From Escherichia coli (GTDB lineage Bacteria > Pseudomonadota > Gammaproteobacteria > Enterobacterales > Enterobacteriaceae), in the NCBI RefSeq assembly GCF_030013595.1, contig NZ_CP122769.1: 64,000 nt of DNA. One strand, given 5' to 3'. Position 1 is the first letter of the stretch, and each line of letters begins with the position of its first letter. This document shows positions 2,375-38,505 of this stretch, one piece after another. A program made the position numbers and the translations under genes. The notes beneath the pieces were generated by a model. That model had not been told where the DNA came from, did no database searches, and saw nothing but the letters and a program-made list of their open reading frames with translations.

Positions 2375-2431
2375 TCCTGTTAAGGGGGAACCCTAACGGG
2401 GCTTCTCTTTGAACAAATCGAGGAGCGGAAA

Positions 2432-2809
2432 ATGTCATATCTTGAATATATCAATGAAGTAAAAGTGTCCGGGATAGTTATCAGTGCTGTGGAGAAAAAA
2501 ATGACTGACCAGAGTATAGGTTTGTTAATAAAGCTCAAAAATAGGATGAAGACAGAAGTTGATGGTGAAATCACTGAGAGAGAATTTTCAGTTCAAATCA
2601 AGGTGTCGCCTGAAATGTATTCAACCTGTTTCACTGGTATAAATCAGGGTGATGAGTTGATGGTCTCCGGTTATATTGTTGTCGATACTATTATGATTGA
2701 AGGGAGAGAACATCCTCTTGACTACATGAGAGTGGTAGCAACAAGTAAGTTGGCTCACATACCTAAACCTCTAAAAGGTTTTGGACAAAGTAGCTTTAAT
2801 CAGATCTGA
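2432..2809 (+). CDS. hypothetical protein, possible OB-fold ssDNA-binding-like
   Basis: 125-aa ORF with RBS GAGGAGCGG upstream. Alternating beta-strand pattern (NEVKVSGIVIS ... EFSVQIKV ... ELMVSGYIVV) loosely resembles SSB OB-fold; assignment is weak. Confidence 0.4.
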   Translation: MSYLEYINEVKVSGIVISAVEKKMTDQSIGLLIKLKNRMKTEVDGEITEREFSVQIKVSPEMYSTCFTGINQGDELMVSGYIVVDTIMIEGREHPLDYMRVVATSKLAHIPKPLKGFGQSSFNQI

Positions 2810-2829
2810 CATTAAACCCACCCTAAAGG

Positions 2830-2860
2830 GGAGAAATCCCTTCATGGGATTTCTCCTTTT
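2830..2860 (+). terminator. intergenic stem-loop (11-bp perfect stem GGAGAAATCCC/GGGATTTCTCC, loop TTCAT) followed by TTTT
   Basis: Perfect inverted repeat read directly from sequence, T-run downstream, sits between stop of upstream ORF and RBS of next ORF. Confidence 0.5.
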
Positions 2861-2869
2861 GGAGTCCCC

Positions 2870-3847
2870 ATGAAACAAAAATTTAGGGCTACTGCAATAA
2901 GTAGTAATCAACTTAGTTTTTTTTCTATACTCGATATAGATGAAGATGAAATAACGCAAATAGTTGATTCACCCAAAGAGCATTTAAATGATGCTTACAC
3001 GTCCGGATTAAACTTTAAATCAGAAGAAAGTAACATTTCTGAGATAAATTATGATTCTGAAAGGCGTGAAAATCACCTTTATGAAAAATCCAAATTACTT
3101 AAAAATCAGATTTTGCATACAATTAATTTTGCAGCAGAAACAGATTATCTATATACGGTTGAAGAATATAACCCAGATTTGGGTGGTCTGGTAATAGAAT
3201 GGACCCCTGAGGATGTGTATGTTGTTTTTCTATCCGCTATGGAAGAGTCTTTGGAAATCATTAAAGAACTAGTGTTGAGGAGAAAGTTATTCTTCAAAGA
3301 TGACAATGGTAATATCACAGTGAATCCACTTTTAGAAGCTGAAACACGGTGGTATATGTCAAAATCATTTGAATACACTTGTTTATCTCATGGACTTGAT
3401 GCATGTGAATTTAGAGCGGAATTAAAATCATGGCTCTATTATCATTCGCATCGTTCGATTAGTGAAAACACGAAATTAGCTGAATGCAGGAATGATGATG
3501 AAATCATTTTGCATGATTGCAATGACGATATGGGCTGGGACATCTTCTTTGATCAGGATTATTTAATGTCAGAAAAAAAACTGGCTGTTAAATGGACTGA
3601 CAGGGAAATTATGGATGTTTACATAAAAGCTTTTAAATCCACATTAGAGTTGTTTGACGAGCTTGTTTCATGTGATCTGTTAACTAAACGAAACGCTTTT
3701 GGCAAGTTAGAAATCAATCCAATATTCGAAAATCATTTTGAATGGATCATGTCTGAAGCTTTTGAAATAGTGGGAAATCATCTTGGTTATAATGTGCCTC
3801 AAATCAGGAAACTGATGGCAACTATTTGCCAAATGAATCTCAAATAA
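2870..3847 (+). CDS. hypothetical protein
   Basis: 325-aa ORF, co-directional with neighbours, preceded by stem-loop and GGAG-like RBS. No recognisable motifs. Confidence 0.5.
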   Translation: MKQKFRATAISSNQLSFFSILDIDEDEITQIVDSPKEHLNDAYTSGLNFKSEESNISEINYDSERRENHLYEKSKLLKNQILHTINFAAETDYLYTVEEYNPDLGGLVIEWTPEDVYVVFLSAMEESLEIIKELVLRRKLFFKDDNGNITVNPLLEAETRWYMSKSFEYTCLSHGLDACEFRAELKSWLYYHSHRSISENTKLAECRNDDEIILHDCNDDMGWDIFFDQDYLMSEKKLAVKWTDREIMDVYIKAFKSTLELFDELVSCDLLTKRNAFGKLEINPIFENHFEWIMSEAFEIVGNHLGYNVPQIRKLMATICQMNLK

Positions 3848-3904
3848 AATGCCACTGGCAAACATCTGCCAGAGGGCGGTGTTTGCATTTTACCGGAGTT
3901 AAAA

Positions 3905-4963
3905 ATGTCTAATGCCGCTATGAAGTTAAATGAAACATCTTCTGATGCTTATGAAAAATTAGAAGCTCTTCTTTCCCCGGATGTTATAAAGTTAAAACAT
4001 TATGTGGATAAAGGTGAGTATCTTTTAGTTCTAGCAAAGGACCTTTTTGGTATTCCAGAAATGGATCCAAAGATGGCTGTGCCTGTTTTCAAAACTAAAA
4101 CCTCGTATCGAGCTCCGCTGAACAAAGACTACATACCAAATCCCCGAATACTTGAACAAGTGGTTAAACTGCTTATCAGTCCGGATATAGATTTAAGTGT
4201 GTGTCTTAAAGGTGAGTCCGGTTCTGGCAAGACTGAAATGGTAATGTACATTAGCCACATGATGAATTGGCCGCTGACAATTAAGCAGATCAACAGCAAT
4301 ATTCGAGTTGATGAGCTTGAAGGTGAGCGCAGTCTTAATGGTGGTAATACAGGTTTTGTACACAGCGATTTGGTAACGGGATTTCGTAATGGTCACCTCA
4401 TTCTTCTGGATGAAGTGGACAAAATCGATCCTGATACGGCAGCAAAACTTCACATGCCCATTGAACGTAAGCCCTGGTCACTCAGTGCTAATGGTGGTGA
4501 GGTTATAACTGCTAATGGCTACACGCGATTTATTGGTACTGCAAACACAAACATGAGTGGAGGCGCTCGCCGGTTCGTTTCTTCTCAACGTCAAGATGCA
4601 GCTTTTATAAAGCGGTTCTTGATAGTTGAAATGGAGAAGCCCGACAAAGTTGCTTTAACCAATGTGCTTACTAAACGATATAGCTCTTTGCCTTTTCAGG
4701 TCATTGAGAAGTTCGTAAGAGTAGCGATTGCAGTAAATGACTCTGGTACAGAAGACAGTGTGATGGATATTCGTCAATTAGTAGCTTGGGTTGGCACGTC
4801 GATGACGTTAAAAACCTTTAGTCTTCTTGACACTTTCAAAATAGCTTTTGCTTCTGCTTTACCTTTACATGTGGTCGATCTTGTTCTTCAAGCTATAGAT
4901 CTTTCTCTTGGCGAAGACAAGGATAAATCGCTGGAGTATTTCACAGCAAAAAAGTCGAGTTAG
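3905..4963 (+). CDS. AAA+ ATPase, MoxR/CobS-like
   Basis: Walker A GESGSGKT, Walker B HLILLDEVDK, downstream sensor-like FIGTANT; size and motif spacing typical of MoxR/CbbQ/CobS-type AAA+ proteins. Confidence 0.8.
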   Translation: MSNAAMKLNETSSDAYEKLEALLSPDVIKLKHYVDKGEYLLVLAKDLFGIPEMDPKMAVPVFKTKTSYRAPLNKDYIPNPRILEQVVKLLISPDIDLSVCLKGESGSGKTEMVMYISHMMNWPLTIKQINSNIRVDELEGERSLNGGNTGFVHSDLVTGFRNGHLILLDEVDKIDPDTAAKLHMPIERKPWSLSANGGEVITANGYTRFIGTANTNMSGGARRFVSSQRQDAAFIKRFLIVEMEKPDKVALTNVLTKRYSSLPFQVIEKFVRVAIAVNDSGTEDSVMDIRQLVAWVGTSMTLKTFSLLDTFKIAFASALPLHVVDLVLQAIDLSLGEDKDKSLEYFTAKKSS

Positions 4964-5094
4964 ATGGGATTTGTTATGAAACCTCTGATATTTGTATCTC
5001 AGAGTTATCCCATCTTGAATTTAGTGCGTTTTTAAGTACGGATGGTGCTGCTACCATTGCTATAGCAAAAAACGGAACTAATTTTACTGGACTT

Positions 5095-5268
5095 ATGCAA
5101 CTGAATAACGACTATTCTTTATTGTTTTATCATGATGGTAAAATAAATATGGAAGGTCTGATTAAACAAATGGAATTAAAAGGTTATATGTATCAGGGAG
5201 CAATGGGCAATGATGATGTTGTTGCTGAGTTTCCCGGTATTCTTTTAATTTCACCAGAGAAGCTTTAA
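5095..5268 (+). CDS. possible small ORF (57 aa) in otherwise unexplained 355-bp gap
   Basis: ATG..TAA ORF (MQLNNDYSLLFYHDGKIN...) ending immediately before a stem-loop cassette like those that follow other genes in the array. No RBS checked; speculative. Confidence 0.2.
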   Translation: MQLNNDYSLLFYHDGKINMEGLIKQMELKGYMYQGAMGNDDVVAEFPGILLISPEKL

Positions 5269-5280
5269 TATCAACCCTAT

Positions 5281-5320
5281 CGGGAAATCTTTCCCGTTGG
5301 GGAGGGTTTCCCCTTTTTTT
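5281..5320 (+). terminator. double stem-loop cassette (CGGGAAA-TCT-TTCCCG and GGGGAGGGTTTCCCC) followed by T7
   Basis: Two adjacent palindromes and a T-run read from sequence, immediately upstream of RBS GGAGAAACCC and ATG at 5319. Confidence 0.5.
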
Positions 5321-6458
5321 GGAGAAACCCATGACTTTAAATACTTCAATGCTTAACAAAGTATCTGCAAAACAAATCTCTGAGAATTTTGCAAAATCAT
5401 ATCCAGATTTACTGGAAGGTGCAGTTATAACAAAAATTGAAATAAGTGGCTGTCAAGGATCGCGTCGAACCGATAAAATCGATTTGTCTTATGATGGAGA
5501 TGATATTACGGATCAAAAAAGCGTATCTAAAAGCGAAGTACGCTGGATTGACATAAAAGCCCTTAGCTTCAAAAGTACGATTACCAGCAGAATATCAACT
5601 CTTTGCTCACGCTTGTGCATCCGCTATAGCAATATGTGGATTTTACCAGTATCCAGTATGGAAGAGTTTCTGGAAGGGGCCCAAGAGATTGAACGAGAGT
5701 TTCAGGCAGGTATTCAAAACGTTGTAGACAATTATGAGATGCATATTGAGGCTGAAAAAAATAGAAGCCCAAGAATGTCTTCTTTGATTGATCAGTTGAA
5801 ATTAACTAAAGATGATTTCATAAAATCCTTTAGATTTAATATTGCTCACTTTATTCCTTTTACGCCTATTAGCGTTGAAGGTGATGAAACCCAGGACTAC
5901 TATCAGGAACAATTGATAACAGATCTGGCAGAAGAAGCAATGAAGGTTTATGAAAAAATTAGCAAAAATAACAATTTGCGCTCAAGTACTATTGACCGAC
6001 TGAAGCAAATGCAAAATAAGATCATTAGCTTCATGTTTATACATAAAGAGGCGGCAGTACTTGCAGAAGCTATAAAACACATAATGAATAATTTACCTAA
6101 AGGTGCCATTTCTGAACCTCGCGACGTTGCGGTGTTACAGCAGTGGTTTTATTTCATGAGTGATGCTTCAATGTTAAAGCGTATTATTTCAGGAGAGCAA
6201 AAGGTTACTGACTGGTTGGAATCTATTACCAGATCATTTAATCAAAGCTCACAAACAGAACCGAACGCGCTACAGAACACAGGTATTGAAGCTATTTTAG
6301 ATTCAACAAATGTGTTCCAGGTTGAACCTGTCGTAGAGAACGATATAAATAACAGCACGTTTTCAAACACTGATCCTGTAGCTGAACCTGAGAAATCAGT
6401 TTCGCAACAGGAAGACAATGTTGAAAATTGTTTTGATATCGAGCTCAAAGGCTGGTAA
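5319..6458 (+). CDS. hypothetical protein
   Basis: 379-aa ORF between the AAA+ ATPase and vWA genes; no recognisable motifs. Position suggests it belongs to the same module. Confidence 0.5.
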   Translation: MEKPMTLNTSMLNKVSAKQISENFAKSYPDLLEGAVITKIEISGCQGSRRTDKIDLSYDGDDITDQKSVSKSEVRWIDIKALSFKSTITSRISTLCSRLCIRYSNMWILPVSSMEEFLEGAQEIEREFQAGIQNVVDNYEMHIEAEKNRSPRMSSLIDQLKLTKDDFIKSFRFNIAHFIPFTPISVEGDETQDYYQEQLITDLAEEAMKVYEKISKNNNLRSSTIDRLKQMQNKIISFMFIHKEAAVLAEAIKHIMNNLPKGAISEPRDVAVLQQWFYFMSDASMLKRIISGEQKVTDWLESITRSFNQSSQTEPNALQNTGIEAILDSTNVFQVEPVVENDINNSTFSNTDPVAEPEKSVSQQEDNVENCFDIELKGW

Positions 6459-6477
6459 CTGTTTGCTTTATTAAAAA

Positions 6478-6520
6478 CCCCAGATGGGTACTTCACCATC
6501 TGGGTGAGTACCCCTTTTTT
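6478..6520 (+). terminator. intergenic stem-loop with two mutually exclusive pairings followed by T6
   Basis: CCAGATGG/CCATCTGG and GGGTACTTCACC/GGTGAGTACCC alternative stems, then CTTTTTT; lies between stop at 6458 and ATG at 6536. Confidence 0.5.
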
Positions 6521-6535
6521 ATAAAGAGGTATTCT

Positions 6536-8554
6536 ATGAAATTAGATCTTAAATCATCACCGCGCCATATTAAGCGTTTACAGAATATAGCAAAAGTCAT
6601 TAGCGGCTTAGGCGATGTAAGAGTTGTAATAGACGACAATACCAAAGGACCGTATTTTGATCCTGTAAATAAAGTTTGTGTTTTACCAAACGGCGATTAT
6701 AGCGATGATGACTTTGTCAGTCTGATTGAAGGTTTTACCTGTCATGAAGCTGGTCATGGTCGCTATACCGACAGCGAGGTTTACAGTGACGCCTTTAATA
6801 GTGTTCTCAAGTCATCTGAAGGGTTTACACGCTTCGATGACGGAATGAATGCAGAGTTTGAGAGCCTCGCTGAGAAACGTAAAGCTTATAGCAGGGCAAA
6901 ACGTCTTACCGGGCTTATAAATCTGTTCGATGATGTACAGATGGAAGAGAAGGTTGGTAACGATTATCCGGATGCAAAGCGGCGGCTTGCAGCCACTTAC
7001 GCACTGATGGTTAAAGCCGGAAGGATGACTCCTGATATATCTTCTCGTCCGGAAAATCCTGTCCTATTTATTGAGTGGTATCTGCTTAACTCATTGCGAG
7101 TAAAAGTCCTTCAGCAGGCAGGTCACAAAGAAACACTCGATCCGTTTTTTGACTATGCCCAAAAGATACTTTCTCCAGTAATTTCTGATGTTGAGGAAAT
7201 TTTTCATGATGCTCTTGGTTGTGAAAATACTCAGGGCTGTGAATCCCTTGCTCGTAAGACCCTGGCTCTTTTAGAGAGACTGCGGGATGAGGCAAGGGAA
7301 CAACAGCAGCAGACAGAGCAGGAGGAGCAGGAGGCATATGATGAATCCGAGACCGAGACCGATACCGATACCGATACCGAATCAGAAGATAAATCGCTTG
7401 AGTCGACTGATAGTCGTGAGGATGATTCTGAGGACGATAGTGAAGGTCAGGCAGATACTTCCGATAACTCTGATCTTGCTCAAGAGGGATGTTCTGAGCC
7501 TTCAGAACTTGCTGAAGATAACGAGGGAAATAATGAACCCACCGGTGGCAATCCCACAGGTGATAACATTATTGAAGACGATACTGATGCGATTAACCCT
7601 TCCGAGAGTGAATCAGATGAAGCCAGTTCGACTAACGTTGAAGATGAAAGTAACTTTTCATCGGCTCAATGGGAGATACTGGCAGATTTGTTGGATGCCT
7701 TTCTTGGCAGTGATGAGGATAGCGAAGATTATCACGATGCTTTGGCTAAAGAGATTGAAGGTATTGCATCAAAAGTATCCGATGACGTGAAAGCCGAATT
7801 CGGTGCTTCTGAATGGGATATCCCTGATCTCCTTATCGATTTGAATGTTTACAATGAGGCTTTGTCTCTGAGTCATTCAATCGGTAGCGACTTGTCTGTT
7901 TTACAGCAGGTTAAAATGCGTGGCCGAAACAAAACTCATGAGCGTGGAATTACCTTCGATGGAAATCGATTAATTCTGTCACCAATGGGAGTTCGTGATG
8001 TCTTCAGAGCTCAAAGCGAATCTAAAAATAGAGGGCATGTTGGCCTCGTATTAGTTCGTGATATTTCAGCGTCAATGGCTAATGATGAAAGATATATTCA
8101 TGCCATTAAGTCAGATCTTGCTTTATCGATGGCCGCTGAAAGTTTGTCAAAAATGCATGTCTCCAATATAGTCTTTCCCTTCAAGGAAAGTGAATTTGAG
8201 ATTATCAAAACGTTTGATCAAAGCGTTGAGGAATCTCTATCGAAATTCACTCTTGGATGTAAGGGTTATTATACCCCTACGGGATCGGCTTTAATGGCAG
8301 CTGTTGATCTGTTACTTGACAGCCAATTCGATAGGAAAATAATTTTTCTTATAACTGATGGTTATCCGAATAAATCGGAATTTACTATCGGCGAAGTTAT
8401 GGAAAAGGCTAAATGTAATGGAATAGAAATCGTTGGTGTTGGTATTAAGACTGATGAAATAATTGGTTTTGAAACGGACACTTTCGTAACAGTTGATGAT
8501 ACTTCTTTATTGTCTATTGAAGTCAGTAAGCTAGTTCATCAAATACTTTCTTAA
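6536..8554 (+). CDS. von Willebrand factor A (vWA) domain protein, CobT-like, with N-terminal HExxH motif and central acidic low-complexity region
   Basis: C-terminal MIDAS-like motifs LVLVRDISASM and FLITDGYPN; N-terminal CHEAGHGRY (HExxH); central D/E/S/T-rich stretch including ETETDTDTDTESED encoded by hexanucleotide repeats. Confidence 0.75.
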   Translation: MKLDLKSSPRHIKRLQNIAKVISGLGDVRVVIDDNTKGPYFDPVNKVCVLPNGDYSDDDFVSLIEGFTCHEAGHGRYTDSEVYSDAFNSVLKSSEGFTRFDDGMNAEFESLAEKRKAYSRAKRLTGLINLFDDVQMEEKVGNDYPDAKRRLAATYALMVKAGRMTPDISSRPENPVLFIEWYLLNSLRVKVLQQAGHKETLDPFFDYAQKILSPVISDVEEIFHDALGCENTQGCESLARKTLALLERLRDEAREQQQQTEQEEQEAYDESETETDTDTDTESEDKSLESTDSREDDSEDDSEGQADTSDNSDLAQEGCSEPSELAEDNEGNNEPTGGNPTGDNIIEDDTDAINPSESESDEASSTNVEDESNFSSAQWEILADLLDAFLGSDEDSEDYHDALAKEIEGIASKVSDDVKAEFGASEWDIPDLLIDLNVYNEALSLSHSIGSDLSVLQQVKMRGRNKTHERGITFDGNRLILSPMGVRDVFRAQSESKNRGHVGLVLVRDISASMANDERYIHAIKSDLALSMAAESLSKMHVSNIVFPFKESEFEIIKTFDQSVEESLSKFTLGCKGYYTPTGSALMAAVDLLLDSQFDRKIIFLITDGYPNKSEFTIGEVMEKAKCNGIEIVGVGIKTDEIIGFETDTFVTVDDTSLLSIEVSKLVHQILS

Positions 8555-8625
8555 TAAACTCTACCCAATCGGGGCAAAAGGCCCCGGTGGGTCTTTTTGC
8601 TCCATGAAGGAATAAGGAGCAAAAT

Positions 8626-8847
8626 ATGACTCAGATAAAAACTTACCGTGTAGAACATGAAAAAGTCGGTGCGATGCATAAAGTCCGTATTTTCGGACGT
8701 GTTGGTGAAGTTATAAGCAATGATAGCCCTCAGGAAAGAATCTTCCGCGAAGTCACTATAGCGGAGGGTAATAGCCAGCAGGCTGCGTTACTTGTAGATA
8801 ACTACATACAGCGTCTTGAGAATAATGGCTTCACGACTGAAGCATAA
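8626..8847 (+). CDS. hypothetical small protein (73 aa)
   Basis: ORF with strong RBS AAGGAG upstream; no recognisable motifs. Confidence 0.4.
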   Translation: MTQIKTYRVEHEKVGAMHKVRIFGRVGEVISNDSPQERIFREVTIAEGNSQQAALLVDNYIQRLENNGFTTEA

Positions 8848-8852
8848 ATGTT

Positions 8853-8876
8853 GAGGGCCCCCGGGCCCTCTTTCTT
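8853..8876 (+). terminator. palindrome GAGGGCCCCCGGGCCCTC followed by TTTCTT
   Basis: Perfect GC-rich palindrome directly after the stop at 8847, followed by a T-rich run. Confidence 0.45.
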
Positions 8877-8960
8877 AAATTCTGCGTTGTGGGTTTCTCC
8901 CTGTCTTCTGCACCGCAGAAGGCATTGAGAAACTCACAATGCCAGATAAGAGAGATCATC

Positions 8961-10193
8961 ATGACTTATGCATCCCCGGCTCTTCGTCGTAATCCACAGG
9001 AAGTATCTGAACACTTTATTAAACTCGTTCATGCTCGAATTGCTGAAGTGTCTGGCTGGAAGTATATATTCGAAAGAATACCTGCTTTCAAAGACGCTTG
9101 TGCAAAAGCCCCGAGCCAGGTTCCTTGCCCGTTTACTGGCGCAGGGAAATCGAAGTTTCGTTTCCGACAAAAAGACCTTTATACCGGATGTGCGATCCAT
9201 AATGACTTTCCGGTAAATGAGTTTTGCGACGGAATTGATGTTCTGGCGAAATATTATGAATTAAGTAAAACGCAGACTTGCAAAAAGATTCTCTCAGATT
9301 TTTTCGGGATGGATCTGCATGCTCCGTTAACTGACGCCGACATTGAAAATGAACGACGCTATAAATCAGCAGTTCGTGCCACAGAAACTCTTGACCGAGA
9401 GGAAGTGGCAAAGCGAATGCGAAAACTTGATGTGATGTATCACTATACCGGTGAAATCAAGCCTAATACTCCTGTTGCTTTGTACCTCCGTAATCGTGGG
9501 ATCTCCCGCTTACTGAGTCACTTACCAAAGGATTTAGGCTTTAATAACCGGATCTACTATTGGGATAAAGATAAGCAGAAATCGATTATCTATCCGGGAA
9601 TGATTGCGATCTATCGTGACACCCGAGGTCGGCCTCTGACTATTCATAGAACATACGTAGACAAAAATGGTGATAAGGCACCTGTAGAAAATCCAAAGCT
9701 GATGATGAAGCCTCCTGCCGATATGACAGGTGGCTCAATTCAGTTGTTTGACCCTCACTATGATTCAGGTAGTTCGACCTGGACACTGGGAGTGGCTGAA
9801 GGGATCGAGAACGCGCTTTCTGTTGTAGAAGCGACTTCAACACCATGCTGGGCAGCCAGCTCCGCATGGTGCCTTGAAAACGTTACTGTTCCTGATTTTT
9901 TACTGCCTCCGCCGGATGTAAAATCTATAAACTTTTATATCTGGGCGGATAAGGATATTGCTAACTCACAAGGCACTCGTGCCGGTATTGAAGCTGCTCA
10001 GCGACTTCAAAGCCGCATGGTTGAGTTTTTGGCTAAACGATATCCCGCATCAAAGCTGACAATTGAAGTCTTCGAACCAGCACAAGATATTCCTGATGGG
10101 AAAAAGGGTATCGACTGGAACGATGTTCTCCAGTTAACAGGGCAGGATGGATTCCCGATTCACTGGGCTCCTGAATGTCTTAATCAGCTGTAA
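8961..10193 (+). CDS. Toprim-domain protein, putative primase-like
   Basis: Toprim-like motifs LGVAEGIENALSV (acidic E) and IWADKDIANSQG (DxD), Cys/His-rich N-terminus. Start chosen at ATG 8961 (MTYASP...); ORF extends to 8889 upstream. Confidence 0.55.
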   Translation: MTYASPALRRNPQEVSEHFIKLVHARIAEVSGWKYIFERIPAFKDACAKAPSQVPCPFTGAGKSKFRFRQKDLYTGCAIHNDFPVNEFCDGIDVLAKYYELSKTQTCKKILSDFFGMDLHAPLTDADIENERRYKSAVRATETLDREEVAKRMRKLDVMYHYTGEIKPNTPVALYLRNRGISRLLSHLPKDLGFNNRIYYWDKDKQKSIIYPGMIAIYRDTRGRPLTIHRTYVDKNGDKAPVENPKLMMKPPADMTGGSIQLFDPHYDSGSSTWTLGVAEGIENALSVVEATSTPCWAASSAWCLENVTVPDFLLPPPDVKSINFYIWADKDIANSQGTRAGIEAAQRLQSRMVEFLAKRYPASKLTIEVFEPAQDIPDGKKGIDWNDVLQLTGQDGFPIHWAPECLNQL

Positions 10194-10226
10194 CAACGAT
10201 AACTCCCCCGCTTTTTGCGGGGGGGG

Positions 10227-10270
10227 TTATCTTATCAATATTATATTTTAAAATTGTATTGATAAGATAA
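10227..10270 (+). promoter_or_regulatory. 14-bp perfect inverted repeat TTATCTTATCAATA / TATTGATAAGATAA separated by 16-bp AT-rich spacer; candidate operator
   Basis: Read directly from sequence; follows the hairpin CCCCCGCTTTTTGCGGGGG (10205-10227) inside a 270-bp ORF-free gap. Confidence 0.4.
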
Positions 10271-10463
10271 CCGCTTTCCTTCGTGATAATTACCTGCCTT
10301 TAAGGTCTTTTCACGGCTGAGATGCTTGCTCAGTTAAATAAATGTGCGGTACTACTGGCTATGGTCGGTTGTATGACATGGTTATTCCATAAACTATTAA
10401 AACCCATAACGGGAGTATTACCGTTATGGTGATGCTCGTCGTTTTACATCGGAGAGCATTTTA

Positions 10464-10985
10464 ATGAATTTTCAAATTAACGAAGTTTTTAATAAATTTG
10501 CTGCTGTTATAAAATCGCGCATCGTCAATGAACCATCGTCATGCTATTTGCTGCATGATAATGAGATAGATATAACGATTTTGAAACATAGCATATTAGA
10601 AAATGACAGAAACCTGTTGTACGTAGTTCGTCCTTCAGGAACGTGTTTGTTGCGTTGTGACAAATATTTCTATCCGAAATATTATCTTCGTTGCCGTGGA
10701 GATTATAAGTCATTCATATATGTCCATCTTGATCTACATAGTGGTGAAGCTAAAGAAATCACATGGGAGCAAGCAGACGATATGCTGTCTAGTCCAGGAA
10801 AACCCCCATTAAAAGGGAATCTTGGACGATTTGAGTATATAAAAGTTGTGGTTGAGGACCTTCGTATTCGAGGTTACGCTGATTATCTTCCTGCGTATAA
10901 TCTTGATGACCTTCGCCGTTTTGCCTTACAGGACGACCGCCCATCCCTTGTCAGATACATTGACAATGTCATGGCAACGGTCTGA
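10464..10985 (+). CDS. hypothetical protein
   Basis: 173-aa ORF with RBS GGAGAG upstream; no recognisable motifs. Confidence 0.45.
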   Translation: MNFQINEVFNKFAAVIKSRIVNEPSSCYLLHDNEIDITILKHSILENDRNLLYVVRPSGTCLLRCDKYFYPKYYLRCRGDYKSFIYVHLDLHSGEAKEITWEQADDMLSSPGKPPLKGNLGRFEYIKVVVEDLRIRGYADYLPAYNLDDLRRFALQDDRPSLVRYIDNVMATV

Positions 10986-11063
10986 TTGATTGCTAATTGA
11001 TTTACATATTTTCCCTGATGGCCAACCTGCATCAGGGAGGCCTCAATAACGAATGGAGGCTGT

Positions 11064-11942
11064 ATGAAGTTAGCTACGGACCTGGTAAAAGCTATTTTGA
11101 TTAGAAATGGCGTTGAACCAGTAAATATAAGCGAATCATCTAAGTTATCTTTGAAACAACCACTGACAGAACTTAAATTCAGTTTATATTTGCGAACTGA
11201 GCATTTATCTCACTTCCTACCCGGTTATGTTTATTCTATAAAAGAATGTCCACTGTCATATGACATCGGGATCGAAATTCAGAAAATCTTCGAAAGTTTA
11301 CATTTGTTAAACGAAGAATTTGAATCCCTCGGTTTTGTTTCTGTATGGATAGAAATGCATCAAAGCATTTTTGAACAAAGTCGGTTTAAGAAAAGTAACT
11401 TTACTTTTCGGGAGGAAGAGGTCGAGCTTGCTAAAGGGCTTGTTTGTTCTCACAATTCACAAATAAGTAATGCGGCTTATTTCTGGCTTCAGCACTTTGA
11501 GGAGTTTATGATTTATGTTCGTAATAAGCTTATCGACCTCTTTCGAGAGGCCTATGACCTGATCCTTGGAATGCAGCAAGTATTTTTCATTCGGGAAAAG
11601 GAAGAGCTGTTGAAAACTATAAGTTATGGCGATGAGCTGTATGAGGTGAAATTCATGGCGGCTGAGCTTTACTCTATCGAACAGAACTTAAAGTGTTCTG
11701 AATCGATAAGTACAAAATCTCAAGCTTCGGCATATATTAACCGCATCCGTGAGTTTGTGCGTTCGGGGTGGAGGCAGGGCTATATAGTCTGCCATCATAA
11801 GCGAAGTAATCAAATTTCATCATTGTCATTACCGATGTACTTGAAAGATACGTCAGGCCGAAGTGCTCGAAAGCGAGTAAAACGTCTTATATCTTCTACA
11901 GTTTGTGGTAGAAATAAAGATTTAGGTCTTACAGATTTTTAA
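11064..11942 (+). CDS. hypothetical protein
   Basis: 292-aa ORF with RBS GGAGG upstream, preceded by stem-loop CCCTGATG...CATCAGGG; no recognisable motifs. Confidence 0.45.
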   Translation: MKLATDLVKAILIRNGVEPVNISESSKLSLKQPLTELKFSLYLRTEHLSHFLPGYVYSIKECPLSYDIGIEIQKIFESLHLLNEEFESLGFVSVWIEMHQSIFEQSRFKKSNFTFREEEVELAKGLVCSHNSQISNAAYFWLQHFEEFMIYVRNKLIDLFREAYDLILGMQQVFFIREKEELLKTISYGDELYEVKFMAAELYSIEQNLKCSESISTKSQASAYINRIREFVRSGWRQGYIVCHHKRSNQISSLSLPMYLKDTSGRSARKRVKRLISSTVCGRNKDLGLTDF

Positions 11943-11960
11943 TTAAATTATACCCATGTG

Positions 11961-11996
11961 GGGATCACACCCCATATGGGAGTGATCCCTTTTTTT
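11961..11996 (+). terminator. stem-loop GGGATCAC...GTGATCCC with nested palindrome CCCATATGGG, followed by T7
   Basis: Inverted repeats and T-run read from sequence, between stop at 11942 and ATG at 12013. Confidence 0.5.
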
Positions 11997-12012
11997 ATTG
12001 AGAGAGGATCAC

Positions 12013-12948
12013 ATGAAAATTATCGAAAAAATCATTAATGCCTTTTTGGTTGTTCAACATAAAAAAATACAGGTTAAAAACATTACATTTTTAGACAATG
12101 GGCAGGGCATGTTCTCTGGTATGTCTTTTGATGCTGATGTTTCACTGGAGTTTATGTATGAATCAGCAAAAGCATATAGTTCTTGTTTCTTTGATATTCC
12201 CTTTCCAGGTTTTGAAGATGCAAATCTGGAGGAAATTACGAAATTTCAATTAGATGCTTTGAAGCAAAGAAAGAATCATTCTTTCTTTGTTAACCATTTG
12301 AGGTTTCCTATAGTTTTAAGGGAAGGGTGCAAAATCGAAAGAGGAGAAGTCTATTCAATTTCGAATTGCACTTATAATAAAGAAAGATTGCAGTATCTTT
12401 TTTCTCAGGATATTTACGGTAAGTTGTATAATTCCTTAGAGAAAGAATTAAGCTCGTTTTTCTCATTTATCAATGTTGAGGTGCACGAGTTGTTAAAAGA
12501 TGCTGTATGCTTTGCATTAAAAATCCTGAATAAGATATCTTTGGATACACCTGAAAGACTTATTAAAGCTTTTAATTATCGTGACTGGTATTGTAGTTAC
12601 GATGTTGAGCTTTTTAGGAAAGGCTTACCTGGTCATATTCTGGAAGAGCTCATTGCTCCAGATATCTTACTTTCAGACCTTAACGGTTGTAGAAAAATAC
12701 TTAGAAATGCAAAACGATTTCTAAATGGACATACACAAACCAATTGTGTTTATATTAAATATGAATGGTGGTTGGGGCCTGTTGATACCTCACACTCAGC
12801 TAAGTTGATGTCTGACAAAGAAATTAATAACCGAAGTGACTTGAAGAATTTTTCAAAGGTCTTTTTCAAAGAGTGTTTAAGTTCTGGTAAGTCGGAATAT
12901 GAAAACCATCTTAGTGAAAAAGAACATGCGCTTCGCTATAATTATTAA
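12013..12948 (+). CDS. hypothetical protein (~312 aa), first of a tandem array of similarly sized genes
   Basis: ATG at 12013 preceded by RBS GAGAGAGGA (the listed ORF starts at an upstream TTG). No recognisable motifs. Confidence 0.45.
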   Translation: MKIIEKIINAFLVVQHKKIQVKNITFLDNGQGMFSGMSFDADVSLEFMYESAKAYSSCFFDIPFPGFEDANLEEITKFQLDALKQRKNHSFFVNHLRFPIVLREGCKIERGEVYSISNCTYNKERLQYLFSQDIYGKLYNSLEKELSSFFSFINVEVHELLKDAVCFALKILNKISLDTPERLIKAFNYRDWYCSYDVELFRKGLPGHILEELIAPDILLSDLNGCRKILRNAKRFLNGHTQTNCVYIKYEWWLGPVDTSHSAKLMSDKEINNRSDLKNFSKVFFKECLSSGKSEYENHLSEKEHALRYNY

Positions 12949-13016
12949 TTAAAATTATTTTCTCCCATAGGGATTTCTCCCTATGGGAGAAATCCCTCTA
13001 TTAAGAGGGTATTGAA

Positions 13017-13688
13017 ATGAATGCTATACAAAAGTTAGTTGAATCTATTCTTGTTAAAATGGGTTTTGTTGGCGCTGTAGTGGAAAATATATATTTGGAT
13101 TCAAAACCATTTCGGCATATTCGATTTGTGGCTGATATTCCAGTAATATCTTTTCTACCTCATTTGGTGAAATATCTTAAGGGTGCAGACCATCTTTACA
13201 GTGGTAACGATGATTTGCATCCTCTTTTCATTTATTTTTCCGAAGCGGCTACATTAAAAGCAGGTCCTGTAAATCTCGCGAACTTTCGTTTTGAAGTTTC
13301 TATAGCTTCAACTCATTTACGACTGGTCTCAGAGCAGCCTGATTTGCTTTTCAAAGGATTTAACCGGGATAATCTAGAATACGTTTATTACCGCTCAGAT
13401 TTGGCCTCTAGGGATCTTATACTAGGCCTTGTTGAACACGGTTCTCCTTTCATAAAACATCTACATGGACTTATACAAAAGCGAATTTTAAACGAGTTCT
13501 CTCTGATTTTTTCTGTTCTTGAAAAGATTTTAGAAAGCGCGAAGCCACAAATTCTTGCTTGCTTCCATAGTGTTGATTATGAAATGAACGTAAAAATAAT
13601 AGCCGAAGCTATACCTGAAACTGTATCTAATCAGATAGTCACATCTGATTATATAGTTAATGTTAGCGCCAATGATATAAGACTGTAA
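13017..13688 (+). pseudogene. 5' part of a gene interrupted by the IS21-family element
   Basis: Stop codon TAA (13686-13688) lies inside the first bases of the IS end TGTAATTCGCC; the reading frame resumes in the same frame after the element (15787 onward). Confidence 0.5.
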
Positions 13689-13761
13689 TTCGCCATTTGG
13701 GTTGTCCGCTCCACCCAACATGTTGTTTCCTTGAGGTTCTCACACCAGAAAGGACATCGAC

Positions 13762-15731
<1,970 letters not shown>

Positions 15732-15786
15732 TCAAATAGCGGACATTAAAAATGGCGAAAACCGGCCATAAATCTTGGCGTTGACA

Positions 15787-16067
15787 TTAATTCTATATCA
15801 GATGCGGACAAGTTTATAAATCATGTTCGTCGCTATTTAGCAGGCAGGGTAATGAAGAGGCGGATATACGCTGAATTAGATGTTTGTGAAGAAACATCAA
15901 GTATTTCACTAGTGAACTTAGGATGCTTTACGTCTCCTCTGCTCGTTACGGAATATCAAATGTTTAAGCCACACTCTTCAGGGTTATATCGAAAAGCTAT
16001 AAACAACTCCTTAAAACAGTTCAAACCAGAAATGCATGTACCTTCTGAAGAACTCTTTTATAATTAA
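15787..16067 (+). pseudogene. 3' part of the gene interrupted by the IS21-family element
   Basis: Frame is open from the IS end to stop at 16067 and is the same frame (mod 3) as the 5' part; combined length about 316 aa, matching neighbouring genes. Confidence 0.45.
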
Positions 16068-16078
16068 TCTAACCCATC

Positions 16079-16115
16079 CGGGAACCTGCTTCCCGGTGGG
16101 AAGCACTTCCTTTTT
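16079..16115 (+). terminator. stem-loop cassette CCGGGAACCTGCTTCCCGG / GGGAAGCACTTCC followed by T5
   Basis: Inverted repeats and T-run between stop at 16067 and RBS/ATG at 16134. Confidence 0.5.
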
Positions 16116-16133
16116 AGTCATGAGGTAGTGTAA

Positions 16134-17072
16134 ATGTTTAAAGAATCTGACCACGTGGAATTTGTTAGTGCCTTTCTTTATCAAAATTTAGGCCTTAATG
16201 TTTCCGCTGACGATATAACCGTTCAATTATCTGATACTTCGTTCGACAAAGTAACCTTTGATTACGATGTAGATATCGATAATTTAAATTGTATGTTGGA
16301 TCTCTACATATCTGAGCTAATAAAGCACAACGCATCTTACTCCGATTCTATTCTTTTGAAACAAAAAATAATTTATTTTCTTGGAGTATTTAAGAATTTC
16401 GGATTTTTTACGTTTGATATTCGCGGATATAGTAATACTTTAAGCCCAGTTAAAGTTATTGATATTGTTTCAATGATTATTAATGACTGTGAAGAGTTAT
16501 CTAAAGCTAATTCTTCTACTGATGCTATAAGAAATCTTTATCTCGATAAAATGAAGGTGGATGGGAAAGTGTTAGTTGCGAAATTTGCACTTAAACAGTT
16601 TTTTCATTCCGACTTTGGTGACTTTATCTCATTTGTCGAGAAAAGAATTACAGATTGTCTTAATGAAACTTTAAGGATTATCAAAGCTGTTGAACATGGC
16701 TTTGTACGTGTAGGGCAGCATAAGATTAATCGCCGTATTAATGATGACTTAAAGTTATGCATTGATTTCAATACTGATGATTATCCGGCAAATATGCCAG
16801 ATATATATATTAAGTTTAACGATACATTTGATGGGAACGGGGCGTTATATTGTGACAATGATGCCCTCATATCCCTCTATACCGATGTTGCTTCAATTAT
16901 CAATGTGCCGGTGATGATGGAAGTAAGATTGATCAATAAAAGAGGGCGTGTTGTCTGTGATTCTTCGCATTCAACTTACGTATCTCTCGAAAGTAATGAC
17001 CGATACAGAGTAACTGATCGCACATTACTAATAACTGAAGCTTTTGACGATTTTCGTAACGCGTCTCAATGA
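16134..17072 (+). CDS. hypothetical protein, paralogue A of tandem pair
   Basis: 312-aa ORF with RBS GAGGTAGTG. Shares colinear blocks with next gene (KVLVAKFALKQFFHSDFGDFISFVEKRIT vs QVMIARFALQQFWDTHFIGLITFVSESIT; EAFDDFRN vs EVFDNLRN). Confidence 0.5.
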   Translation: MFKESDHVEFVSAFLYQNLGLNVSADDITVQLSDTSFDKVTFDYDVDIDNLNCMLDLYISELIKHNASYSDSILLKQKIIYFLGVFKNFGFFTFDIRGYSNTLSPVKVIDIVSMIINDCEELSKANSSTDAIRNLYLDKMKVDGKVLVAKFALKQFFHSDFGDFISFVEKRITDCLNETLRIIKAVEHGFVRVGQHKINRRINDDLKLCIDFNTDDYPANMPDIYIKFNDTFDGNGALYCDNDALISLYTDVASIINVPVMMEVRLINKRGRVVCDSSHSTYVSLESNDRYRVTDRTLLITEAFDDFRNASQ

Positions 17073-17237
17073 TCCTTTTGCTTCAGTCCAAAAAAGTAAC
17101 TTTGGTTGGCTGAAGACACTTGTCTATGACAATGTAAAATCTGTCGCTGGCATCTTCTTTTAGCTTAACCAAATTTTTATCTAACCCAGTGGGGAAGTCG
17201 CTTCCCTTCTGGGGCACTTCCTCTCAAATTCGAGGTA

Positions 17238-18200
17238 GTGTATATGACACATTCATCTGATGATAAAAACTATGTCCGAGCAGTTCTGAGTTATCTTGGC
17301 ATAGATTTTGATGAGGCGGATATAGTATTAAGTGTTTGCCATTGTCAAAGTGACGAGCTTTCTTTTACCTGTAATATCAAAGCTATTGAACTCAAGAATG
17401 CTGTTGATTTATATGTCGATAGTATCTCTGAGAATGAAATAGAAGCTTTAAACAGAGAATCTTTAAAATCGCGACTCTGTTACTTTCTTGAGGTGTTTGA
17501 CGCAGTCTCTGGTCAGTACCTTGAAATTTCAGGAAAACACTTTGCAACTAGTCGTTTTGAATATGATGATGTTTGTAGTGAAGTTCTTAGCATGTCTAAT
17601 GATGTTTCTCAGTCGAAAGGTTATGACCGGGATGAATATAACAGACTGATGCAGGTTGATGGTCAGGTTATGATTGCCCGTTTTGCTTTGCAACAGTTCT
17701 GGGATACTCATTTTATTGGACTAATAACATTTGTATCTGAGTCTATAACATCGAGCCTCTATAAAGCTTATGAAACTTTTAGTGATATTAGTTTGGCTTG
17801 CTATAAACTGAGTGAATATTCTTATTCACGCTCTATCAACAGTGAATTGACCCTTAATATTTCACTTAAAGAAAATGACTTCTGTGAGGACCTATCTGAT
17901 TGCTATATGGAAGATGAGGCTTTACCTTCTGGTAGGGTAATTTCTCGACGCAACAATGACTCCATAATAAGTATTTATGAGAGCTATGCTGCGGCTTCTT
18001 ATATTCCGATGATTGCATCTTTGGAAGTCGTTGATGAATACGGCGAAGTGGTTACTGACCTCTGCCATACCGTTTATGTTTCAGAGTTAACCGGTGGGCG
18101 GATTAAAATCCACGACCGTAATGACTTAGTATCTGAAGTTTTCGATAACCTAAGAAATTTAAATCTTGCAGTTGGAGATTCAGTTTCACAAGCTGCTTGA
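17238..18200 (+). CDS. hypothetical protein, paralogue B of tandem pair
   Basis: 320-aa ORF with identical RBS context (GAGGTAGTGTATATG); colinear similarity to 16134-17072 product. Confidence 0.5.
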   Translation: MYMTHSSDDKNYVRAVLSYLGIDFDEADIVLSVCHCQSDELSFTCNIKAIELKNAVDLYVDSISENEIEALNRESLKSRLCYFLEVFDAVSGQYLEISGKHFATSRFEYDDVCSEVLSMSNDVSQSKGYDRDEYNRLMQVDGQVMIARFALQQFWDTHFIGLITFVSESITSSLYKAYETFSDISLACYKLSEYSYSRSINSELTLNISLKENDFCEDLSDCYMEDEALPSGRVISRRNNDSIISIYESYAAASYIPMIASLEVVDEYGEVVTDLCHTVYVSELTGGRIKIHDRNDLVSEVFDNLRNLNLAVGDSVSQAA

Positions 18201-18239
18201 TTCTTTCCCTGATTTTGATTTTTTCTCACATACTCTTAT

Positions 18240-18263
18240 GGCACGGTTTCCGTGCCTTTTTTT
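18240..18263 (+). terminator. Rho-independent terminator GGCACGGTTTCCGTGCC + T7
   Basis: Perfect 7-bp stem with 3-nt loop followed by TTTTTTT, 40 bp after stop at 18200. Confidence 0.6.
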
Positions 18264-18462
18264 GCCTCGCTTACAAGCGTCTACTCCTCTTCTACCTATC
18301 CCACCTTACATCACCACTTAAAATCTATCTTTCTAATTCCATTATCCTTTTCGTAGCCTCTAATGCTCTGGTATGAACATACTCTTTAAACTCAAAAAAG
18401 TGCTATTAACGAAAAAAAATCCCTAAAGAGATTTGTATACTGTTCTCAACCAAGGAGAGCTC

Positions 18463-26154: not shown

Positions 26155-27708
26155 TTAGTTTTCAACTAACTGAACGACGACCAGCCTGCCGCCTTCCTCC
26201 TTTGACAGAACAAACTGAGCGTTATTCGTCAGTTCAATTTTTTCCCCAATGGCAATCTGTCGTTTATCCGGTAATGACATAAGCCCATTTATGCCTTCAT
26301 TTACTAACCACCACTGATCGTTATGGAAAACAAAATACCCAACTCGTTTCCTTTGTGCATCGGTTGTGCGCTCATTTGGCGCAATGAGGCGATTCACATG
26401 CCACGCATAGATTGACTGCCCGCTCCACACCATCAACCGGTGGTCGTCAGGACGATAACTGCCTTCCTTTCGGGATGAATATAAATTTAGAACCGGTAAT
26501 TTACCCTTGTATGGCGTACCGCAGTAGGGACAAACCGGCTTTGTCTTACCTGAGAAAACGTACCATTTCTGTTCACACGCCTTGTTCTGGCAGGGCTGTA
26601 TCAGATCGACTGTTTTAACCAGGGCACTTTCCCACTCATCGGCGGTCGGGCGTTTATTGGCATCGTGTAAGCCATCAATAAAGGCGCGTTCAAACAAAGG
26701 CGTCAAATAAGGGCCCATGATGGTGTAAGGAATTTTCTCCGGGTCAGCCCAGGGCAGTGAAAAGGAGGATATCTGACTGACTTTGACTGCATTGCTTTTG
26801 TCTGTCGGATGTTCAATGAAGAGTGCCTTCTCACCCATAGATAAGGTCTCATCACGTACTTCATCCGACATGTCATGTATTTTTCCGCCACGTAGCGGAT
26901 GACGGAAGAACAGATACATGTAGATAAGCACCGACAGCGCATGACGGTCAGTAGAAATGCTTGGCAATACGCGGTTCGGATCCTCTTTGGAAAGATGGCT
27001 GGTTTTCACCACTTCCGGAGCGATAAAATCCGGGGTGCCCACGACGTCGGGAGGATACTTTCCAGGGACAACCAGGCCGTCTACGTCAATGATGCAGGCA
27101 TGTCCCATTTCTGGATCGATAAGCACGTTTTTATAGCTTAGATCGCTGTGACAGAGACCTGCCGCATGCATCCTTCTGACGGCTCTTGTTAGCAGCAGAC
27201 AGACCTTGAGATAGGTAAGCGTATTGCCTCGTTCACGTGGGTCGAGAAATTTATTCTGGTTGCTGGCGCTGGCAAACCATTTGCCTTCCTTTTCACGGCC
27301 TTTTATGCCAAGAAAATCATCGTTTTTAGAGCCGTATTTAAAGAAAAAGTAGCTTTTGTAGGTTGGAACCACGATGCCGATTTTATCCCCATGCTCAACA
27401 ACGTGGGTCGGCCAGCAAAACAGGTCCTTCCAGTATTCACCTCCGGACTGGCCAAAAATGTTTTGCCTGTAGCGTCCGGTGATCATATCAATCCGATCCC
27501 GGGCCTGCTCGTTCTGCGGTTTATGATAAAAAGCGACGACGTATGATTTATCAGGCGAGAAGTAAACATCCTTCATCGAGCCCGAACCAATTACCTCGTC
27601 AACATACTGGACTGTTTCGCCGTCCTTTGTTTTGCACGTAACAATATTTGCCATATTGATCACCGAAGAAGCGTATCCCTTACCACAACACCGCAATAGT
27701 GCGGTCAT
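26155..27708 (-). CDS. Hanks-type serine/threonine protein kinase with C-terminal zinc-ribbon
   Basis: Gly-rich loop VIGSGSMKDVYF, catalytic loop HSDLSYKNVLI, IDVDG (DFG-equivalent), GTPDFIAPEV (APE motif); CQNKACEQ...CPYCG zinc ribbon. Alternative start at 27654 (MANIVTCK). Confidence 0.8.
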   Translation of the reverse strand: MTALLRCCGKGYASSVINMANIVTCKTKDGETVQYVDEVIGSGSMKDVYFSPDKSYVVAFYHKPQNEQARDRIDMITGRYRQNIFGQSGGEYWKDLFCWPTHVVEHGDKIGIVVPTYKSYFFFKYGSKNDDFLGIKGREKEGKWFASASNQNKFLDPRERGNTLTYLKVCLLLTRAVRRMHAAGLCHSDLSYKNVLIDPEMGHACIIDVDGLVVPGKYPPDVVGTPDFIAPEVVKTSHLSKEDPNRVLPSISTDRHALSVLIYMYLFFRHPLRGGKIHDMSDEVRDETLSMGEKALFIEHPTDKSNAVKVSQISSFSLPWADPEKIPYTIMGPYLTPLFERAFIDGLHDANKRPTADEWESALVKTVDLIQPCQNKACEQKWYVFSGKTKPVCPYCGTPYKGKLPVLNLYSSRKEGSYRPDDHRLMVWSGQSIYAWHVNRLIAPNERTTDAQRKRVGYFVFHNDQWWLVNEGINGLMSLPDKRQIAIGEKIELTNNAQFVLSKEEGGRLVVVQLVEN

Positions 27709-30357: not shown

Positions 30358-30442
30358 AATTTTCCTCGTACGGCTGGTACGGCCAGCAGAAAACGTTGCT
30401 GTACAGAAAGGTGCTGCCCGGAAAGCAGCACCTTTCTGTCTG

Positions 30443-31722: not shown

Positions 31723-31744
31723 GACATCCCCTTAATTAATAAAA

Positions 31745-33314: not shown

Positions 33315-33331
33315 CGTAAGATTTAGCCTGC

Positions 33332-34540: not shown

Positions 34541-34550
34541 TATGATTTCC

Positions 34551-36586: not shown

Positions 36587-36587
36587 T

Positions 36588-38502: not shown

Positions 38503-38505
38503 GCC

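Follow-up and report, generated by a model that had tools for sequence, protein, structure and literature searches.

Why does a conjugative plasmid keep a tandem run of similarly sized genes that no family library explains? The question is raised by positions 10464-18200 of a 64,000-nucleotide stretch of Escherichia coli contig NZ_CP122769.1 (hereafter the window, always at its full length), where a small gene, gA, is followed on the same strand by five genes, g0 to g4. Positions 10400-18400 show 100% identity to the IncHI2 plasmids NZ_CP117034.1 and NZ_OY754830.1, and many further IncHI2 plasmids are identical over this interval except for a 2.1-kb gap; judging by its sequence, the window comes from an IncHI2 plasmid. 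Plasmids of the IncHI1 and IncHI2 groups rank among the chief carriers of multidrug resistance in typhoid and, in Enterobacterales, of mcr-1, mcr-9 and carbapenemase genes. The five paralogues take up about 5 kb of the invariant backbone of these plasmids; in plasmid R27 they stay silent at rest and are induced about 100-fold along with the transfer genes. It is tentatively proposed here, as a possible reading, that g0-g4 are transfer-coupled, stoichiometric, non-enzymatic binders of cellular or host factors, acting during transfer or establishment.

An initial annotation of this DNA had described four consecutive, co-directional genes of similar length. Plus-strand open reading frames (ORFs) do lie at the places it gave, and its observation is real but under-counted: the paralogy is right and extends to five genes, g0 having been overlooked. 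The array and the gene that opens it are as follows.

10464..10985, + strand: gA, 173 amino acids (aa); opens the unit; in 8 of 8 lineages; two-hairpin module upstream
11064..11942, + strand: g0, 292 aa; fifth paralogue; bridges the g1/g2 and g3/g4 clades
12013..12948, + strand: g1, 311 aa; g1/g2 clade; orthologues in IncHI1, IncHI1B-type, L011 and L019
13017..16067, + strand: g2 as a whole, interrupted; split by an insertion sequence (IS)
13017..13660, + strand: 5' part of g2, codons 1-214; the ORF reads into the IS and ends at 13688
15787..16067, + strand: 3' part of g2, codons 215-306
16134..17072, + strand: g3, 312 aa; acidic, net charge -14
17244..18200, + strand: g4, 318 aa; pI 4.3, net charge -30

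The boundaries of g2 were set against the intact 306-aa allele at L001:8618-9538. The frames of g1 and g4 are open from TTG 11998 and GTG 17238, but the genes likely begin at ATG 12013 and ATG 17244, which are favoured because RefSeq, the N-termini of the orthologues and the position of the hairpin that holds the Shine-Dalgarno (SD) sequence agree. The ribosome-binding context reported as common to g3 and g4 is present upstream of both, as GAGGTAGTGTA followed by 1 nt and ATG.

Common ancestry and predicted fold of the array proteins

By BLAST alone, g3 is joined to g4 (26.9% identity over 309 aa; blastp E 4e-37; hhalign probability 99.9%) and, weakly, g1 to g2, and no other pair is recovered. 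Profiles were therefore the means of comparison between clades, and they were built with orthologues from IncHI1 (L003), IncHI1B-type (L004) and five more divergent IncH-like backbones. With these profiles, hhalign relates g1 to g2 (98.2% probability, E 5e-14), g0 to g2 (96.1%, E 3e-9) and g0 to g3/g4 (88%, E 3e-6), the last two alignments being colinear over about 230 columns, and it relates g1/g2 to g3/g4 with E 6e-5 over 277 columns; every one of these alignments is colinear starting at residue 1. Control targets that had been reversed or column-shuffled stayed at E >= 0.02, and matches to unrelated neighbour genes were short, with E >= 0.035. These alignments show g0-g4 to be one protein superfamily, apparently five ancient tandem duplicates of a single gene. 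The two genes that had been called clearly paralogous (g3 and g4) are so, but the relation is wider and takes in all five. A sixth paralogue was also considered in gA and is unsupported (E 0.035-0.45 against the array families).

AlphaFold models were obtained from an alignment of 43 family members, with a predicted local distance difference test score (pLDDT) of 90.2 and a predicted template modelling score (pTM) of 0.84 for g4, and 83.6 and 0.79, respectively, for g2. The two models agree in the succession of their elements, which opens with an N-terminal alpha-beta-beta-alpha unit and a helix and continues with a beta-hairpin, a central helix of about 45 residues, a C-terminal beta-rich domain and a terminal helix. 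In Foldseek searches of AFDB, each model's list is topped by its own orthologues and at least 8 neighbours are common to g4 and g2; a second tier, common to both models, consists of uncharacterised proteins of about 300 aa (TM 0.6-0.7, 10-17% identity). The tier found with g2 includes proteins of 292, 293 and 308 aa (TM 0.55-0.70, TMq/TMt), whose lengths and hosts fit g0 and g1. Judged by element order and common neighbours, g4 and g2, with their g0/g1-like neighbours, have the same predicted fold, and the array proteins are modelled as two-domain alpha/beta proteins of about 300 aa with a new fold. A family of tandem paralogues, as originally suggested, is borne out both by pairwise and profile alignment and by structure prediction, each of which detected similarity among the members.

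The hosts of the second tier are Dickeya, Brenneria, Serratia, Photorhabdus, Pectobacterium, Salmonella and Pasteurellaceae (TM 0.6-0.67, 10-14% identity), and Foldseek also returns a 323-aa 'Phage protein'. Accessions among the AFDB neighbours are A0A5B8HP55, A0A421DJK9, A0AAJ1YHK3, A0A6L9JU38, A0A6G8F409 and, for a DUF1738 fusion, A0A5Y2S904. One likeness involves ArdC: in a 708-aa protein carrying DUF1738 (the ArdC N-domain), the remainder fused to this domain weakly resembles the array fold (Foldseek E 4.5e-4, TM 0.41). Colinear weak matches link phrog_10163 (303 positions, unannotated function) to the N-terminus of g3 (E 0.005) and to the C-terminus of protein P0044 (E 0.15). The predicted fold may perhaps occur also in integrative and conjugative elements and in phages. 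A tblastn search of g3 and P0044 against 50,697 phage records gave chance matches only, and the name 'NgrC', borne by one Foldseek neighbour, leads in the literature to unrelated acronyms only.

Searches of the family libraries place the array outside them. No significant match for array members was found in NCBIfam or PADLOC, 0 of 43 members match Pfam, sequence searches of PDB with two profiles gave no match, and nothing significant came from PHROGs apart from the one weak possible link to phrog_10163; no homology or fold match was found between the array proteins and any known anti-defence family. An exhaustive hidden Markov model search of 1.84 billion cluster representatives with the g3/g4 profile recovered 41 proteins only, mostly fragments; overall, homologue searches gave 18-41 clusters among 1.8-5.8 billion proteins, and a word-index search with the 43-sequence profile gained no distant relatives. 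Every full-length homologue that was located occupies the same IncH-like synteny. The array proteins make up a superfamily that is restricted to plasmids and had not been described; it is absent from Pfam, NCBIfam, PDB and, the one weak possible link aside, PHROGs, and it is new to these libraries independently of what its members do.

A further candidate homologue from the exhaustive search, P0063 (a 2078-aa LPXTG surface protein), was set aside as probably a case of motif-level or repeat-summed similarity and not of homology. It carries nine repeats, each weakly matching positions 194-293 of the g3/g4 profile, with an overall E of 3e-8 (DDYLLxLYN vs NDALISLYT).

Over the 43 members, the only near-invariant residues are A13, L15, Y57 and F160, all of them hydrophobic; the alignment contains no conserved catalytic or polar residues, and no nuclease, NTPase or other effector domain was found by Pfam. 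The Kyte-Doolittle maximum over 19 residues stays below 1.6, with no segment of transmembrane strength. Because only four hydrophobic residues are near-invariant and such segments are missing, we infer that the array proteins are probably soluble and non-enzymatic. All g4-type proteins end in -AA (SQAA, FDAA, SVAA, AIAA, AQAA, SKAA, SEAA, SRAA; positions 18189-18200 in the window's g4). This terminus recalls an ssrA-like ClpXP degron, and by that analogy g4 may be short-lived by design.

Conservation, selection and tolerated losses

By sequence, the family is confined to IncH-like plasmids, where its placement is constant, after a toprim gene and gA and before the small genes that precede a Tus-like gene. 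The genes are orphans in the sense of being unannotated, as had been stated, but they belong to the conserved core of all IncH-type backbones examined. Gene counts over 8 lineages are 2, 4, 4, 4, 5, 5, 5 and 5, distributed as follows.

L007: 2 genes, a g0-type and one g3/4-type
L012, L022: 4 genes, g0, g2, g3 and g4
L011: 4 genes, g1, g2 and two mutually closest g4-like genes
IncHI1, IncHI1B-type, IncHI2, L019: 5 genes, g0-g4

The variation between related elements that had been anticipated exists between deep IncH-like lineages, but the number is fixed at 5 in IncHI1 and IncHI2. Among 1124 IncHI2 records, the array is present at >=99% identity in 1111 and unbroken in 1107, with no change of copy number.

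The g0/g1/g2 clade and the g3/g4 clade are both found in every lineage, in unchanged order. This pattern favours the main rival of the binder proposal, according to which the paralogues are subunits of one hetero-oligomeric, transfer-associated assembly, built from type I (g0/g1/g2) and type II (g3/g4) proteins balanced from one operon. Every lineage has at least one gene per clade, type I before type II (1+1, 2+2, 2+2, 2+2, 3+2), and conserved lengths and purifying selection also speak for it. Orthologue lengths in IncHI1, IncHI1B-type and IncHI2 are 292, 311, 306, 311-312 and 318 aa (g0 to g4). The constancy of length requires the correction of three miscalled starts in the divergent lineages L012 (7394, 7986) and L022 (6950), where the gA and g0 calls begin 33-42 nt too far 5', within the first of the two upstream hairpins described below; after correction, g0 has 292 aa in all lineages but L007 (271 aa). 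Net charge is likewise conserved for each paralogue, at -29 to -31 in g4, -10 to -14 in g3 and about 0 in g0-g2.

Rapid divergence under diversifying selection, of the kind expected of anti-defence or host-specificity factors, had been suggested for the array. Ratios of nonsynonymous to synonymous change (dN/dS; pairwise Nei-Gojobori, gene-wide) do not uphold it. Between IncHI1 and IncHI1B-type they are 0.15-0.24 for the array and 0.07-0.20 for its neighbours; between L012 and L022, 0.11-0.25 and, for most neighbours, 0.04-0.10; and between two IncHI2 sublineages, 0-0.29, on just 3-6 substitutions per gene. The array values are at most 1.5-2.5 times those of the neighbours and far below 1. Synonymous sites are saturated between IncHI1 and IncHI2, where g0-g3 share 47-53% identity and g4 63.5%, most larger neighbours sharing 58-80%. 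A fast-turnover, arms-race family would account for the array genes being the most divergent large genes of the block in that comparison, for an omega that is higher than the neighbours' by a factor of 1.5-2.5 in L012 vs L022, and for copy number differing between deep lineages. It is nevertheless improbable: gene-wide dN/dS is 0-0.29 at three time depths, lengths and charges of orthologues are invariant, copy number is steady within IncHI1 and IncHI2, and the near-identity within IncHI2 extends to almost all records. The array is an old, sub-functionalised set and not a fast-turnover one; purifying selection on it is clear, although its rate of change is somewhat above that of the neighbours. 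An anti-defence or host-specificity role for it is possible.

The gene reported as split by an IS is g2, which is interrupted by a 2126-bp IS21-family element with a TTAA target duplication.

13661..15786, + strand: IS21-family insertion sequence, 2126 bp; istA and istB; TTAA duplication
13762-14934: istA, 390 aa, annotated IS21 family
14934-15731: istB, 265 aa, annotated IS21 family

The element has the hallmarks of its family, namely an istA transposase, an istB helper ATPase, TG...CA terminal inverted repeats and a short target duplication. Its termini are TGTTAGCGCCAA...TTGGCGTTGACA, its inverted repeats TGTTAGCGCCAA and TGTCAACGCCAA agree at 10 of 12 positions, and TTAA stands on either side, at 13657-13660 and 15787-15790. 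Its GC content is 50-55%, vs 33-40% in the flanks, and its precise excision in silico restores a g2 of 306 aa, as in uninterrupted plasmids.

Other members are disrupted elsewhere. The R27 prototype carries IS2 within its g4 orthologue (L017 10238-12530), pMCR_915_C1 an ISSso4-like IS21-family element in g1 (L024 1215-4795), and the IncHI2 plasmid pLS149-1 an mcr-1-pap2 cassette in g2 (L025 2219-5746). With g2 of the window, these four independent disruptions show that the loss of one member is tolerated by circulating plasmids. Insertions of this kind are also what functionless, decaying remnants would accumulate. Decay is, however, highly improbable, taking into account that frames of unchanged length are intact across lineages saturated at synonymous sites, that dN/dS is well below 1, and that the array is unbroken in those 1107 of 1124 IncHI2 records.

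Co-regulation with transfer genes and a two-hairpin RNA module

The first base of the window falls within trhI, the final named gene of the Tra2 transfer region, and from this point a co-directional run of genes extends 23 kb in the 3' direction, as far as the Tus-like gene. After trhI come three hypothetical genes, a MoxR-like AAA ATPase, a small ORF, DUF3150, a VWA protein, a 73-aa ORF, a DUF7146/Toprim_3 gene (8961-10193), gA (10464-10985), the five genes of 292-318 aa, several small genes and the Tus-like gene. Nine genes, among them those for the MoxR-like AAA ATPase, DUF3150, the VWA protein and DUF7146/Toprim_3, lie between trhI and a terminator past toprim (window 1501-10193).

In the R27 record, trhI is followed by the R0002 and R0001 equivalents and, past the record origin, by AAA, DUF3150, VWA, toprim, and then gA and the array. 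R-numbers were assigned by counting gene order, a count supported by the position of IS2 (R0195 = insD) and by consecutive UniProt accessions, and give the following map.

R27 map: R0204, toprim; R0203, gA; R0202, g0; R0201, g1; R0200, g2; R0199, g3; R0198, 5' fragment of g4

The IncHI1 g3 orthologue is identical in sequence to Q9L5E9, and Q9L5F0 and Q9L5F1 (Salmonella Typhi, 183 and 149 aa) match g4 in Foldseek, their lengths fitting the IS2-flanking g4 fragments of R27.

Expression of the R27 genes has been described by Gibert et al. 2020 (PMC7366339), who reported a nine-gene cluster, R0204 to R0002, induced at 25 °C, which fits the nine genes from trhI to the terminator past toprim; R0204 and R0205 rise 35-40-fold in an htdA mutant, values that apply to these two genes. 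In the wild type, R0198-R0203 do not exceed the threshold for expression, with 27-129 units at 25 °C and 9-61 units at 37 °C, and the htdA mutant gives 2740-6669 units at 25 °C, 38-115-fold up (PMC7366339, Tables S3/S4); at 37 °C these genes are unexpressed in both wild type and htdA mutant (PMC7366339). These literature data on R27 show that the array orthologues are co-regulated with the transfer genes and are among the most tightly HtdA-repressed parts of the plasmid; derepression in the htdA mutant at the permissive temperature only is the behaviour that defines the HtdA/TrhR-TrhY regulon. The array signals in the mutant are similar, spread less than 2.5-fold, which is a further point for subunits balanced in one assembly.

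Such regulation bears on a different explanation, a plasmid-borne defence or exclusion system directed against phages or competing plasmids. Defence genes are common on large plasmids, and a MoxR-like AAA ATPase, DUF3150 and a VWA protein are encoded upstream of the array. A standing defence would, however, be expected to show the opposite of what is seen in R27, where the genes are silent in the resting host and on only with the transfer genes; with no PADLOC match, no effector domain (nuclease, NTPase or other) and no polar residue conserved, a defence role is quite improbable.

The unit that starts with gA is separated from the toprim gene by a spacer with features of its own.

10194..10463, + strand: toprim-gA spacer; terminator, then a conserved block of about 70 nt, then a two-hairpin module

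A strong intrinsic terminator lies at 10203-10225. The block of about 70 nt past it is kept in 7 lineages and holds an inverted repeat, CTGAG..CTCAG, and a TTGCTC-N18-TAnnnC motif, which make it a candidate promoter/operator of the gA-g4 unit. Across the spacer, the R27 microarray signal falls 8-fold in the wild type and 3-fold in the htdA mutant (PMC7366339).

Each gene of the unit is preceded by the same RNA module.

10402-10466: module before gA; two hairpins
11010..11066, + strand: module before g0; GC-rich hairpin with SD mimic, then SD-sequestering hairpin
11951..12015, + strand: module before g1; two hairpins; the 66 nt upstream have a minimum free energy of -35.0 kcal/mol, z -8.2
12957..13019, + strand: module before g2; two hairpins; z -10.1
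16071..16136, + strand: module before g3; two hairpins
17183..17246, + strand: module before g4; two hairpins

Two adjacent hairpins stand upstream of 42 of 42 starts of the unit (gA and g0-g4; 8 lineages). Hairpin 1 is GC-rich (CCCnnnGGGG...CCCCnnnGGG), and hairpin 2 has the SD as its 3' arm and ends 0-7 nt 5' of the ATG. When each orthologous group is aligned separately, RNAalifold finds both hairpins, and 2-9 pairs per group are changed on both sides; on a single MAFFT alignment of all 42 modules it finds no structure, the stems being mis-registered. In each of the 42 modules, the 5' arm and loop of hairpin 1 form an SD mimic, for which the anti-SD arm of hairpin 2 is a possible pairing partner. 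The mean duplex energy with this arm is -10.2 kcal/mol for the mimic vs -10.5 for the true SD, and against composition-matched shuffles the mimic/anti-SD pairing has z < -1.5 in all 42 (mean -3.4). These complementarities suggest a two-state switch, which would be OFF with both hairpins formed and the SD buried, and ON with the mimic paired to the anti-SD arm and the SD free. Translational coupling to a terminating ribosome is ruled out as a general trigger because the upstream stop codon lies anywhere between 2 and 152 nt from hairpin 1 (for gA, about 210 nt).

The module is not specific to the array. It is also found upstream of the genes at 2431, 6536 and 8626, and the start at 5331 has the same two adjacent hairpins, just under the criterion for SD pairing, as is the g0 start at 11064; none of the 34 other annotated gene starts that were examined, from 18463 onward, has it. 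The module is a mark of the entire block downstream of trhI and ceases after g4. Its presence before each paralogue adds to the case for an assembly, whose subunits would all be gated alike.

A search of Rfam with positions 1-24000 of the window gave no relevant match at E <= 1. Hairpins involved in translational coupling and the ROSE and fourU RNA thermometers likewise pair the SD near the start codon, as hairpin 2 does here, and, as with these thermometers, IncH transfer depends on temperature. Unlike known SD-sequestering hairpins, the module has an extra upstream hairpin with an SD mimic that rivals the SD for the anti-SD arm. It is a candidate for a new translational control element, irrespective of the function of the proteins.

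Proposed role in transfer or establishment

The proposal that g0-g4 act as binders is drawn from the new predicted fold, the lack of a catalytic signature, the paralogue-specific charge, the purifying selection, the transfer-coupled expression in R27, the modular gain and loss of genes and the tolerance of single losses; restriction to one plasmid family and an amino-acid divergence above that of the neighbours also speak for it. The two-domain, probably soluble proteins of about 300 aa, part of the backbone of IncH-type conjugative plasmids, are encoded by a unit, gA-g4, downstream of Tra2, which in R27 is kept silent by the HtdA/TrhR-TrhY circuit until transfer is derepressed. Under the proposal they would then act in transfer-competent donors, or in a burst in new transconjugants before HtdA accumulates, binding and inhibiting host factors, perhaps with a separate partner for each paralogue. 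The strongly acidic g4 might act as a mimic of nucleic acid or of some polyanionic ligand. In its acidity it recalls the DNA mimics T7 Ocr and ArdA, its charge being conserved and spread over both domains. Should the proteins indeed aid establishment or disturb factors of the host, they would matter for host range and as candidate targets to block the spread of these plasmids.

The array can be compared with the anti-defence islands of leading regions (ArdA, KlcA/ArdB, PsiB, SSB), which are plasmid-only, co-directional, transfer-linked, non-enzymatic, individually dispensable and of a number that varies by lineage. Restriction to plasmids, co-direction, transfer-linked expression, single dispensability and lineage-variable number are shared by the array, as probably is the lack of enzymatic activity. 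Unlike these islands, it consists of five paralogues of one family and not of an unrelated mix, its proteins have about 300 aa vs fewer than 200, and it is a fixed backbone core under purifying selection. The array adjoins a DUF7146/Toprim_3 gene, which recalls ArdC, Sog and TraC, proteins made for the recipient; unlike these, its products are without a DUF1738, protease or primase domain.

Several points weigh against the binder proposal. In R27, mobI and the MobH relaxase gene occupy 103.9-108.1 kb, with a divergent spacer at 108.1-108.9 kb, and the array 166.2-172.6 kb. The mobI/MobH-relaxase region is taken here to hold oriT, as in MOBH elements, and a leading-region island is rejected because the array is about 58-64 kb away. 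The expression data come from donors only and from R27 only. Low dN/dS and near-identity in more than 1000 IncHI2 plasmids do not point to an arms race, typical inhibitors are smaller than these proteins, and literature searches for functional studies of these ORFs, or for the protein accessions, gave none. Moreover, the constant co-occurrence of both clades in fixed order fits a complex at least as well.

That complex, the hetero-oligomeric assembly, meets difficulties of its own. Copy number varies, plasmids without one member persist, and R27, which lacks an intact g4, is presumably transfer-proficient; the assembly is regarded as unlikely, even as the main rival. A broader scheme, rather doubtful as a whole, would join several of these elements: gA-g4 and the trhI-to-toprim block would form one transfer-coupled unit, gated gene by gene by the SD/anti-SD/SD-mimic switch, and the paralogues would be either an IncH-specific machine or a multi-target host-interference set for establishment, a host-range determinant overlooked since all its genes are called 'hypothetical'. 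The remaining probability belongs to roles other than those named.

Downstream of the array, a HipA-type toxin-antitoxin pair and a tellurite-resistance region are ordinary IncHI2 cargo. The ter region (window 26155-46106 and 48993-50000, with the HipA-type pair) comprises terZABCDE, terW, terY-type VWA genes, an ATP-grasp/PRTase cluster, a PP2C phosphatase and a kinase.

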